Positions 597-3,338 of a stretch of DNA of 5,097 nt are shown one piece after another. Numbering within the stretch: the first letter of the stretch is position 1; each line of letters opens with the position of its first letter. The DNA is from a virus (lineage: Duplodnaviria; Heunggongvirae; Uroviricota; Caudoviricetes): IMG/VR virus record IMGVR_UViG_2700989364_000009, one strand, 5' to 3'. The translations under genes were made by a program, and so were the position numbers. The notes below the pieces were generated by a model that had not been told where the DNA came from, did not search any database, and saw only the letters and a list, made by a program, of their open reading frames with translations.

Positions 597-3338
597 GTGC
601 TCAGTGATTTCTGCTCGGCGATGCGCTGTATGCCGGTATGGAACGGGCAGACGCTGACGTTCGTGCAGGACCGACAGTCGGATAAGGTGTGGGCCTATAA
701 CCGCAGTAATGTGGTGATGCCGGATGATGGCGCGCCGTTCCGCTACAGTTTCAGCGCCCTGAAAGACCGCCATAATGCCGTTGAGGTGAACTGGATTGAC
801 CCGGATAACGGCTGGGAGACGGCGACAGAGCTTGTGGAGGATACGCAGGCCATTGTCCGTTACGGTCGTAACGTCACGAAGATGGATGCCTTTGGCTGTA
901 CCAGCCGGGGGCAGGCACACCGCGCCGGGCTGTGGCTGATTAAAACGGAACTGCTGGAGACGCAGACCGTGGATTTCAGCGTGGGTGCTGAAGGGCTTCG
1001 TCATGTACCGGGCGATGTCATTGAAATCTGCGATGATGACTATGCCGGTATCCGCACCGGCGGGCGCGTGCTGGCGGTGAACAGCCAGACCCGGACGCTG
1101 ACGCTCGACCGTGAAATCACGCTGCCATCCTCCGGCACCACGCTGATAAGCCTGGTTGACGGGCAGGGGAATCCGGTCAGCGTGGAGGTCCAGTCCGTCA
1201 CCGACGGCGTGAAGGTAAAAGTGAGCCGTGTTCCTGACGGTGTTGCTGAATACAGCGTGTGGGGGCTGAAGCTGCCGACGTTGCGCCAGCGCCTGTTCCG
1301 CTGTGTGAGTATCCGTGAGAACGATGACGGCACGTATGCCATCACTGCCGTGCAGCATGTACCGGAAAAAGAAGCCATCGTGGATAACGGGGCGCACTTT
1401 GACGGCGACCAGAGCGGCACGGTGAATGGTGTCACGCCGCCAGCAGTGCAGCACCTGATATTCCCCGCTGTCTGCAGTGACTTCTGCGATCAGGTAGACC
1501 GCCATAATGCCGTTGAGGTGAACTGGATTGACCCGGATAACGGCTGGGAGACGGCGACAGAGCTTGTGGAGGATACGCAGGCCATTGCCCGTTACGGTCG
1601 TAACGTCACGAAGATGGATGCCTTTGGCTGTACCAGCCGGGGGCAGGCACACCGCGCCGGGCTGTGGCTGATTAAAACGGAACTGCTGGAGACGCAGACC
1701 GTGGATTTCAGCGTGGGTGCTGAAGGGCTTCGTCATGTACCGGGCGATGTCATTGAAATCTGCGATGATGACTATGCCGGTATCCGCACCGGCGGGGGCG
1801 GGCTGGCGGGGGACAGCCAGACCCGGACGCTGACGCTCGACCGTGAAATCACGCTGCCATCCTCCGGCACCACGCTGATAAGCCTGGTTGACGGGCAGGG
1901 GAATCCGGTCAGCGTGGAGGTCCAGTCCGTCACCGACGGCGTGAAGGTAAAAGTGAGCCGTGTTCCTGACGGTGTTGCTGAATACAGCGTGTGGGGGCTG
2001 AAGCTGCCGACGCTGCACCAGCGATTGTTCCGCTGCGTGAGTATCCGTGAGAACGACGACGGCACGTATGCCATCACCGCCGTGCAGCATGTGCCGGAAA
2101 AAGAAGCCATCGTGGATAACGGGGCGCACTTTGACGGCGACCAGAGCGGCACGGTGAATGGTGTCACGCCGCCAGCGGTGCAGCACCTGACTGCCGAAGT
2201 CACCGCAGACAGCGGGGAATATCAGGTGCTGGCGCGCTGGGACACGCCGAAGGTGGTGAAGGGGGTGAGCTTTATGCTTCGCCTGACCGTGGCAGCGGAT
2301 GACGGCAGTGAGCGGCTGGTCAGCACGGCCCGGACGACGGAAACCACATACCGCTTCACGCAACTGGCGCTGGGACGGTACACGCTGACAGTCCGGGCGG
2401 TAAATGCCTGGGGACAGCAGGGCGATCCGGCGTCGGTATCGTTCAGGATTGCCGCACCGGTAGCACCGTCGCGGATTGAGCTGACGCCGGGCTATTTTCA
2501 GATAACTGCCACGCCGCATCTTGCGGTTTATGATCCGACGGTACAGTTTGAGTTCTGGTTCTCGGAAACGCGGATTACCGATATCAGGCAGGTTGAAACC
2601 ACAGCCCGCTACCTTGGCGCGGGGCTGTACTGGATAGCCGCCAGTATCAATATCAAACCGGGCCATGATTATTACTTTTATATCCGCAGTGTGAACACCG
2701 TTGGCAAATCGGCATTCGTGGAGGCCGTCGGTCGGGCGAGCGATGATGCGGAAGGTTACCTGGATTTTTTCAAAGGCAAGATAACCGAATCCCATCTCGG
2801 TAAAGAGCTGCTGGAAAAAGTTGATCTGACGGAGGATAACGCCAGCAGACTGGATGAGTTTTCGAAAGAGTGGAAGGACGCTAACGATAAATGGAATGCG
2901 ATGTGGGGCGTCAAAATTGAGCAGACCAAAGACGGCAAACATTATGTCGCGGGTATTGGCCTCAGCATGGAGGACACGGAGGAAGGCAAGCTGAGCCAGT
3001 TTCTGGTTGCCGCCAATCGTATCGCGTTTATTGACCCGGCAAACGGGAATGAAACGCCGATGTTTGTGGCGCAGGGCAACCAGATATTCATGAACGACGT
3101 GTTCCTGAAGCGCCTGACGGCTCCCACCATTACCAGTGGTGGCAGTCCTCCGGTATTTTCCCTGACATCAGACGGAAAGCTGACCGCTAAAAATGCGGAT
3201 ATCAGTGGAGCTGGGAGACGGCGACAGAGCTTGTGGAGGATACGCAGGCCATTGTCCGTTACGGTCGTAACGTCACGAAGATGGATGCCTTTGGCTGTAC
3301 CAGCCGGGGGCAGGCACACCGCGCCGGGCTGTGGCTGA
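597..3338 (+). CDS. J: J-like tail tip / host-specificity protein, internal segment containing an in-frame internal duplication (blocks A-B-C, inverted linker, B-C, D); no authentic N-terminus in window; ends at a frameshifting junction
   Basis: Frame 3 is open from 513 (TGA at 510-512), first GTG at 597, TGA at 3336-3338. Translation carries motifs I recognise from lambda J ([35 protein letters not shown]; [21 protein letters not shown]; [11 protein letters not shown]). Block C occurs twice in this frame (891-1458, 1623-2190), spaced 732 bp = 244 codons. After 3209 the frame reads non-J peptide ([17 protein letters not shown]...). Confidence 0.6.
765..1458 (+). repeat. Direct repeat unit B+C, copy 1 (694 bp)
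   Basis: Begins gaccgccataatgcc, ends cagcacctga; same unit at 1497-2190 (offset 732) and partially at 3210-3857. Confidence 0.85.
1459..1496. other. Junction linker: inverted copy of the 31-bp quasi-palindrome spacer plus truncated right arm, joining block C back to block B
   Basis: 1459-1489 (tattccccgctgtctgcagtgacttctgcga) matches the reverse complement of 2191-2221 (tattccccgctgtctgcggtgacttcggcag) with 4 mismatches; tcagg (1490-1494) matches the right arm. Confidence 0.75.
1497..2190 (+). repeat. Direct repeat unit B+C, copy 2 (694 bp)
   Basis: Offset +732 from 765-1458, in frame. Differs by one substitution in B (gcc vs gtc, A/V), the G-cluster at 1797-1812 and C-terminal variants in C. 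Confidence 0.85.
2181..2231. repeat. Quasi-palindrome: 10-bp perfect inverted repeat (cagcacctga / tcaggtgctg) around a 31-bp spacer; second copy at 3848-3898
   Basis: Left arm 2181-2190, right arm 2222-2231 (exact reverse complement). Left arm alone recurs at 559-568 and 1449-1458, each the last 10 bp of a C block. Confidence 0.8.
2191..2775 (+). repeat. Block D allele 1 (immediately downstream of block C)
   Basis: Homologous to 3858-4442 at roughly 95% identity by eye ([28 protein letters not shown]...DFFKG); scattered substitutions, no indels seen. Confidence 0.8.

Follow-up and report, generated by a model that had tools for sequence, protein, structure and literature searches.

In the lambdoid prophages of E. 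coli and Shigella, lambda-type gpJ is encoded by a single contiguous ORF of ~3.4 kb lying between a tail assembly gene and lom. Recombination between prophages is well established in both E. coli and Shigella. Joins between copies of a repeated gene can also be of computational origin. The program GapFiller extends sequence by means of 29-nt overlaps, for which two reads per base suffice, and by default it closes a gap once two extensions share an overlap of 10 nt or more (PMC3446322). The Sanger pipeline behind 299 public S. sonnei assemblies uses SSPACE together with 120 GapFiller iterations, and its authors caution about false joins (PMC5320598).

The window, that is the whole stretch of 5,097 bp analyzed here, corresponds to the entire contig CXFR01000279.1 of the Shigella sonnei draft assembly GCA_001261595.1. 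Every base of it aligns to annotated gpJ, at 82-98% identity, and only lambda-type gpJ DNA is present. Inside each fragment the Pfam domains Phage-tail_3, Ig_J, Ig_J_second and Phage_Tail_Tip follow the usual order (E-values from 1e-43 to 4e-31; the last three were found in fragment 4), so that homology and domain set both place the sequence in gpJ. This DNA is arranged as four forward J fragments and one flipped piece of 37 nt (Table 1), separated by non-homologous junctions at about 569, 1458, 1495 and 3209; at two of these the reading frame is interrupted. All five pieces start and stop within the gene, and the same segment is repeated three to four times. In a test of gpJ architecture neither a J start nor a J stop nor any neighbouring gene was found in the window, and the contiguous ORF expected between the tail assembly gene and lom is not present in it. 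Tandem Repeats Finder reported no repeat for the window, because the copies are too far apart. J sequences occupy a median of 3 places per genome and up to 14, and the contig of this draft assembly lies wholly inside such a multi-copy repeat. The first-pass annotation, which had treated the gene copy named C2 as a local oddity among sound copies, has to be corrected in this respect: the whole window is a patchwork, and position 1458, which had been taken for the end of a gene copy, is one of the four junctions.

Table 1. Pieces, junctions and variant features of the window (positions in the window; J, position in the reference J gene)
Feature	Position	Strand	Description
J fragment 1, copy C1	1-568	+	Reference J 1306-1873; pure 'a' allele; J frame = frame 1
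Junction 1	569		Orphan A unlike either flank; J 1873 joined to J 985; frame broken, TGA at 571-573
J fragment 2	570-1458	+	J 985-1873; frame 3; holds copy C2 (891-1458); Pfam Phage-tail_3, E = 1e-43
'b' block in C2	947-1241	+	C3/C4 base at 22/22 sites, as in L004-L007
Crossover tract	1242-1280	+	39 nt, with no difference among the four copies and the pure a and b alleles
'a' block in C2	1281-1444	+	C1 base at 8/8 sites (1281-1361)
1445 variant	1445	+	A in C2, G in C1/C3/C4
Junction 2 overlap	1449-1458		CAGCACCTGA, exact 10-nt overlap
Flipped piece	1459-1495	-	J 1914 to 1878; spacer (31 nt) and 6 nt of the second arm, in reverse complement
J fragment 3	1496-3208	+	J 1179-2891; frame 3; holds copy C3 (1623-2190); itself mosaic
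G cluster in C3	1797-1812	+	Four private changes to G (1797, 1801, 1810, 1812): C>G, T>G, T>G, A>G
Second b-to-a switch	2094-2263	+	Within a 170-nt tract identical in the a and b alleles
Junction 4	3209		Orphan A unlike either flank; J 2891 joined to J 1226; frame broken
J fragment 4	3210-5097	+	J 1226 to about 3100; frame 2; holds copy C4 (3290-3857)

Copies C1 to C4 were compared in a common register, without indels, and alleles like C1 were called 'a' while those like C3 and C4 were called 'b'. Thirty sites of the four-copy alignment separate C1 from C3/C4, and along C2 they fall into a perfect 22|8 split, with the last b-type site at 1241 and the first a-type site at 1281, which confirms the two-allele mosaic and the place of the switch that had been proposed from the sequence. 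The chance of such a split is small (exact P = 2/C(30,8) = 3.4e-7), and in a breakpoint test on the aligned copies the maximum chi-square, 30 at the C2 breakpoint, was matched in none of 100,000 permutations; C2 is thus made of contiguous informative blocks, each like a different parent, beyond what chance would give. The R versus H difference in PTL[R/H]QRL is also real, while the number of 5' differences between C2 and C1, given before as about 15, is 22. The described identity of the 5' part with C3/C4 holds at all 22 separating sites, apart from the private G changes of C3, and that of the 3' part with C1 holds at all eight, apart from position 1445. Third codon positions account for 22 of the 30 differing sites, and substitutions between the allele types are of all kinds (A>G, C>T, T>C, G>A, G>C and others).

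Both sides of C2 have exact counterparts elsewhere: 570-1280 is 100% identical to loci L004-L007, and 1281-1444 (164 nt) is identical to L012 and L081. The other fragments have close relatives as well. The 568 nt of fragment 1 are 100% identical to the J allele L012 of an IMG/VR contig, and fragment 4 is 99.7% identical to L004 and L005, being of the b allele save for a 142-nt patch (4132-4273) and reaching the contig end within the gene. The pure b allele (69 of 69 marker sites) was found in L004-L006, L087-L089, L096, L100 and L101, the pure a allele (again 69/69) in L106 and in the first copy of L012, and both occur in normal, contiguous J genes of other contigs. Since the parents are found pure in normal J genes and no other instance of the b-left/a'-right haplotype was seen, it is C2 that is derived.

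C2 is most likely an assembly artefact, because the window is a draft contig stitched from several prophage J fragments. We give a probability of roughly three in four to the reading that C2 is a computational chimera, generated when greedy scaffolding and gap filling ran through prophage repeats that had been collapsed. The isolate would hold several lambda-like prophages whose J genes have long identical stretches in common, and a short-read assembler would have collapsed these repeats. The sequence between allele-specific anchors would then have been rebuilt base by base, through short overlaps and with reads pooled from all prophages. Wherever the identity between a and b is longer than the overlap used, the extension would lose its allele and may go on along another, and at 1242-1280 the path would have passed from the b allele to an 'a'-like one. 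The same process could also produce the switch at 2094-2263, the repeated segments, the four non-homologous joins and error bases at low coverage. What the analysis itself demonstrates is the mosaic pattern, the patchwork make-up and draft-assembly origin of the contig, and the population data; as to the specific software step, we infer a pipeline of the Velvet, SSPACE and GapFiller type.

The position of the crossover was considered as a discriminator and rejected. The tract at 1242-1280 is one of three a/b-identical tracts of at least 29 nt between the a/b markers of the C copy, and the three a/b switches of this segment sit in its only tracts of that kind; the position cannot discriminate, because real recombination would also favour the longest identical tracts.

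It is unlikely, in our evaluation, that C2 is a genuine recombinant J allele and that only the joins around it are assembly errors. Such an allele could have arisen by recombination or gene conversion between co-resident lambdoid prophages, with the exchange in the 39-nt tract, or it could belong to a third prophage with a natural mosaic (b-like 5' part, a'-like 3' part, A at 1445 and a c-type continuation). The complete E. coli genomes had to be discarded as a population sample for the b allele, which they lack: for 572-1458 their best match is at 98.0%, and so below pure b. The IMG/VR loci were used in their place. Biological recombination is still allowed because mosaicism of J alleles is heavy in the population at large: among 81 IMG/VR loci nearly all combinations of site states were seen, at least seven different left-hand haplotypes go with the right-hand a' haplotype TGCCTTTA, and natural recombination in the segment is common. 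In protein sequences a b-left part together with R is common, and for this reason a protein-level match to C2 would not be diagnostic.

Parts of C2 are found in other alleles. The exact 88-nt joint occurs within IMG/VR only in L084, an independent contig with normal J architecture (other versions of this region are b,b' in 17 loci and a,a' in 7 loci); the metagenome and GTDB collections do not contain it. L108, which has a normal J gene, carries the last 177 nt of C2 with the A at 1445. This A occurs naturally in other J alleles, being carried by 10 of 106 loci, and in L080 is linked to the sequence of the flipped piece, so that 570-1495 could be the allele of a third prophage; from the sequence, it is possible that the A and the flipped piece mark a third ('c') allele source for the end of C2. 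However, neither locus carries the C2 allele: L084 is a different mosaic allele with many other differing sites and indels, and L108 has nothing more than those 177 nt in common with it. The full C2 haplotype was found neither in IMG/VR (best match 98.99%) nor in the 5,426 complete E. coli genomes (best match 98.0%). Also against a genuine allele, each flank of C2 has a 100% identical allele within the same contig, as a path switch would give, and sibling a/b mosaics occur only alongside scrambled J. Clean a/b block mosaics were counted in 7 of 19 copies from scrambled-J contigs versus 0 of 14 otherwise (Fisher P = 0.013), and each of those in sibling contigs has its own, different crossover. 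The first-pass annotation had left the choice between recombination or gene conversion and a chimeric assembly path; the mosaic is real, the evidence favours the assembly path, and recombination is less likely.

The joins around C2 were compared with finished genomes and independent assemblies. In none of the 5,426 complete E. coli genomes was at least 80% of a 121-nt probe spanning junction 1 covered, and all junctions, as well as the tandem layout, are absent from these genomes, complete S. sonnei genomes not being among the collections. IMG/VR, GTDB genomes and JGI metagenomes do not contain the 66-mer that spans junctions 2 and 3. The joins are thus missing from finished genomes and independent assemblies, in collections that do not include complete S. 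sonnei genomes. H63, the sole match with 99% coverage, was rejected as a natural junction 4; it derives from J by deletion and has the two halves in reverse order. The stop of the ORF fused at junction 4 lies at 3336-3338, and the fused ORF of 913 aa is a singleton among about 15 billion proteins.

The overlap at junction 2, CAGCACCTGA, forms one arm of an inverted repeat that J naturally contains; the second arm, TCAGGTGCTG, lies 31 nt downstream. The 10 nt of the overlap equal the default closure threshold of GapFiller. The flipped piece that follows is of a third allele type, with one mismatch adjoining the junction, and after it, at about 1495, the contig jumps to J 1179. This geometry brings in a chimera formed in vitro before assembly, by template switching between homologous J alleles in library PCR or by fold-back priming at the 10-nt inverted repeat, the assembler then having built in such reads correctly; we consider this very unlikely. 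The succession X + CAGCACCTGA + reverse complement of the spacer + TCAGGT would be the exact product of fold-back priming, and a gap filler taking two reads per base could admit rare chimeric reads (PMC3446322). Chimeric molecules, however, are rare compared with true reads, and fold-back priming predicts GCTG plus the reverse complement of C2 after the flipped spacer, where the contig instead passes to another part of J; the multiple copies and the other joins are also left unexplained by this hypothesis.

Fragment 3 contains a second mosaic. Its allele order is other (C at 1588), b (1679-2093), a (2264-2777) and then others, with a marker pattern of b30 followed by a39. The cluster of private G changes in C3 turns GGRVLAVN into GGGGLAGD; its sequence was found in 0 of 106 related loci, the normal version in 42 of 106. 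It looks like sequencing error, which would be expected if 1797-1812 was built from very few reads.

Similar scrambled J contigs are present in other public draft assemblies and in IMG/VR. Similar but non-identical sibling arrays, and mosaics with different crossovers, would also be accounted for by a real array, in which truncated J cassettes of several alleles stand in tandem downstream of J in some S. sonnei prophages. We regard this as the least probable of the readings, and hardly credible. If it were true, gene conversion among the cassettes would be frequent, small flips would occur at the internal 10-nt inverted repeat, and the array would be a rapidly changing reservoir of receptor-binding-protein sequence.

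If the chimera in C2 is an artefact, as is most likely, the GenBank contig and the 913-aa "host specificity protein" annotated on it, CST65831.1, do not represent real gene products, and studies of recombination, phage host range or pangenomes based on such drafts can miscount assembler mosaics as recombinants. If C2 were genuine, it would be a further case of the already well-known mosaicism of lambdoid tail genes. In either case the C2 mosaic opens no new question.

Compared with known systems, the window resembles lambda-type gpJ of E. coli and Shigella lambdoid prophages in homology and in Pfam domain order, but in place of one gene it has four truncated, overlapping fragments plus the flipped piece, with two frame breaks. 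It shares with diversity-generating retroelements and invertible tail-fibre cassettes (Mu Gin, P1 Cin) repeated variant parts of a receptor-binding gene and a short inverted segment with inverted repeats on its two sides. A diversity-generating retroelement was rejected, the changes being mostly at third positions and not adenine-specific and the contig having no reverse transcriptase gene; so was an invertible cassette, the contig having no invertase gene, the arms being of 10 nt only and the flip yielding no alternative C-terminus. With natural lambdoid mosaicism the window has in common the two-parent blocks, the exchange inside identity and the sites in many combinations; it differs in that its blocks are 100% identical to alleles of the same contig and stand beside non-homologous joins, and in that comparable mosaics of sibling assemblies are restricted to scrambled contigs. 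From the GapFiller closure rule junctions 1 and 4 depart, having an orphan base and no overlap, and the rule leaves them unexplained. In the other respects the window is like the false joins of SSPACE and GapFiller: a small contig consisting of nothing but a multi-copy prophage gene, segments in duplicate where a de Bruijn graph would output each only once, a join at a 10-nt overlap, allele switches confined to identical tracts that exceed the 29-nt extension overlap, and error bases consistent with the two-read threshold.

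The 568-nt segment of J (the lambda-type gpJ tail-tip/host specificity gene) that the window holds in four copies, C1 to C4, was compared register by register. Thirty sites separate C1 from C3/C4, and C2 agrees with C3/C4 across the first 22 (window 947-1241) and with C1 across the final 8 (1281-1361), while in the 39-nt tract between the two blocks (1242-1280) there is no difference among all copies. The exact probability of this perfect 22|8 split is 3.4e-7, and the maximum chi-square of 30 was reached in 0 of 100,000 permutations. This confirms the proposal of the first-pass annotation that C2 is a chimera of two allele types with a switch near 1241-1281; the example strings it quoted were all found in the window and the R/H replacement is present, but its figure of about 15 sites differing from C1 in the first part is too low, the actual count being 22. 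The claimed identity of C2 to C3/C4 over the first part holds at the 22 sites, although C3 carries four private changes (1797, 1801, 1810, 1812), and that to C1 over the last part holds at the 8 sites but not at position 1445.

Copies, pieces and related arrays. Copies were found by repeat finding and register-by-register comparison; a and b, alleles of the C1 and C3/C4 types; a' and b', their right-hand haplotypes; L-numbers, J loci from other sequences.
Feature	Name or pattern	Window	Reference J	Strand	Remark
Copy	C1	1-568			568-nt segment, gap-free
Copy	C2	891-1458			568-nt segment, gap-free
Copy	C3	1623-2190			568-nt segment, gap-free
Copy	C4	3290-3857			568-nt segment, gap-free
Piece		1-568	1306-1873	+	
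Piece		570-1458	985-1873	+	
Piece		1449-1495	1914-1868	-	
Piece		1496-3208	1179-2891	+	
Piece		3210-5097	1226 to about 3100	+	
Scrambled sibling	L085, L104, L012				one 39-kb contig, IMGVR_UViG_2700989365_000006
Scrambled siblings	L090, L105				
Scrambled siblings	L091, L092, L093, L098				
Sibling mosaic	b12 then a25				
Sibling mosaic	b39, a8, b10				
Sibling mosaic	b29 then a10				
Sibling mosaic	a-to-b' switch				

To define the parent alleles, eighty IMG/VR J loci were used, together with loci retrieved through exact pattern matches. C1 matches L012 at 100% identity (allele a), window 570-1280 is 100% identical to L004-L007 (allele b), and window 3210-5097 matches L004 and L005 at 99.7%. 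Between about J 684 and J 1362 the two alleles show no differences; from there to J 2459, 69 sites distinguish them. Since pure b (69/69 sites) is known in the contiguous J genes L004-L006, L087-L089, L096, L100 and L101, and pure a over the same sites in L106 and the first copy of L012, both parental types exist as real alleles, from which C2 is derived. As a whole, the C2 haplotype had no exact match in IMG/VR, where the closest sequence (98.99%) is simply the b allele, or in complete E. coli genomes (best match 98.0%). Concerning the 88-nt joint of C2, the corresponding 88-mers are b,b' in 17 loci and a,a' in 7, the metagenome and GTDB collections gave no match, and the exact joint occurs once, in L084; this locus is a different mosaic allele, with indels and many other sites that differ from C2. 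That C2 is a natural recombinant between J alleles is plausible a priori, because the same sites occur in many combinations among 81 loci, and parts of C2 are found in normal J genes (L084, L108); we nevertheless consider this origin unlikely.

The window is the whole contig CXFR01000279.1 (5,097 bp) of the draft assembly GCA_001261595.1 (exact protein match), and the protein record for its ORF gives Shigella sonnei as organism. It contains J alone, with both contig ends inside the gene; its gpJ fragments overlap and meet at four non-homologous junctions, and against the reference gene it resolves into five pieces. The J reading frame in the four forward pieces is 1, 3, 3 and 2, so the frame breaks at 569 and 3209, while the domains inside each piece are the ordinary gpJ set, and in complete E. 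coli genomes all pieces stack on one ordinary J gene (~2.1 kb). The 913-aa ORF (597-3338) forms a singleton cluster in a set of about 15 billion proteins; GenBank annotates it as a fused 'host specificity protein' (CST65831.1), crossing three of the four junctions. Very long antisense ORFs lie opposite the J frame on the minus strand (300-2942, 880 aa; 2942-4462, 506 aa); rather than genes, they are probably side effects of J codon usage.

At junction 2 (1458) the joined sequences overlap by exactly 10 nt, CAGCACCTGA (window 1449-1458). J has a natural 10-nt inverted repeat, CAGCACCTGA, 31 nt, then TCAGGTGCTG (also compared at 2181-2231 and 3848-3898); after C2 its 31-nt spacer stands flipped, followed by six bases and a jump to J 1179, which accounts for the inverted repeats detected by repeat finding. 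The flipped spacer (within 1449-1495) is of a third allele type, with one mismatch adjoining the join. Library chimeras through fold-back priming at the decamer could account for this junction but for little beyond it, and are very improbable as the origin of the C2 chimera. Junctions 1 and 4 each hold a single orphan A (569, 3209), matching neither the preceding nor the subsequent sequence, which may represent a one-base gap that was filled in or converted. A 66-mer across junctions 2 and 3 was not found in IMG/VR, GTDB representative genomes or JGI metagenomes, and probes across each junction had no contiguous match among 5,426 complete E. coli genomes; the sole high-coverage match there was discarded, being a deletion derivative of J whose halves come in reverse order. 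The complete genome of E. coli EcPNK006 (NZ_CP071436.1, locus 1776-4002) holds a J pseudogene that is frameshifted and internally deleted (J 1466 joined to about J 2665), a genuine J rearrangement unrelated to the window junctions.

Segment 3, the forward piece that contains C3, is b at all 30 C3 sites and a at the next 39, switching inside a 170-nt a/b-identical tract (2094-2263), so C2 is not the sole mosaic in the contig. Different alleles again fit its first 126 nt and its last 430 nt; past 2777 (2778-3208) the best matches are L022 and L062. In the otherwise b-type segment 4, a 142-nt patch (4132-4273) has 6 mismatches to L004/L005, three of them a-type. The A at 1445, at the end of C2, is a natural variant (10/106 loci), and because in L080 it is linked to the same sequence that stands flipped after C2, the end of C2 probably derives from a third allele. 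The four private C3 substitutions fall within 16 nt (1797-1812) of a GGC-rich stretch, are all to G and all non-synonymous (GGRVLAVN to GGGGLAGD), and the cluster is present in 0 of 106 related loci. Changes to G in GGC-rich surroundings are a typical form of Illumina sequence-specific error, and the cluster looks like a sequencing error carried into the consensus.

Scrambled J arrays, with junction coordinates unlike those of the window, were found in several IMG/VR contigs that share the a and b alleles, and among these siblings clean a/b block mosaics occur, with a different crossover in each. Block mosaics made up 7 of 19 copies in scrambled contigs, whereas none was seen among 14 contiguous J genes (Fisher P = 0.013). 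Mosaics confined to scrambled contigs and varying by assembly are what an assembly process would be expected to give; such behaviour does not fit an allele inherited within a clonal pathogen, and the siblings' host is presumed to be Shigella sonnei, which is clonal. L093 starts at J 1306, as the window does, and L104 re-enters J at 1228 (window, 1226). Several pure-b contigs also end inside J, at 2184 (L086, L094, L099) or 2126 (L097). Ending inside a gene is usual at a collapsed repeat, and the repeated end at J 2184 is consistent with a collapsed-repeat boundary common to related assemblies.

From organism, accession style and contig numbering we infer that GCA_001261595.1 was made by the Sanger high-throughput pipeline, which has put out 299 public S. 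sonnei assemblies, averaging 405 contigs (PMC5320598). It runs Velvet (k 66-90% of read length), SSPACE and 120 GapFiller iterations with a falling evidence threshold, and its authors caution that these tools work greedily and are apt to make false joins (PMC5320598). GapFiller lengthens the edges of a gap base by base, using 30-mers of pooled reads (29-nt overlap); a base is accepted once 2 reads and a 0.7 majority back it, and the gap is closed when the extensions from its two sides share at least 10 nt (PMC3446322). Greedy joining and gap filling of this type probably produced the window. The 10-nt overlap at junction 2 fits the closure rule. Gap filling also fits the presence of one segment several times, since such repetition is not produced in a plain de Bruijn contig; the absence of the G cluster from the 106 loci also fits a GapFiller-type assembly. 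In the C-copy region only three a/b-identical tracts reach at least 29 nt (56, 39 and 170 nt) and all a/b switches fall there, in agreement with the 29-nt extension overlap, but real recombination would also prefer long identical tracts. The orphan-A joins are outside GapFiller's published rule.

The first-pass annotation had left recombination and a chimeric assembly path side by side; the second is favoured here, and a non-biological origin is the most likely one for the C2 mosaic. A DGR or invertible-cassette system was rejected, there being no enzyme gene in the contig and the substitutions being of all types, mostly at third codon positions.
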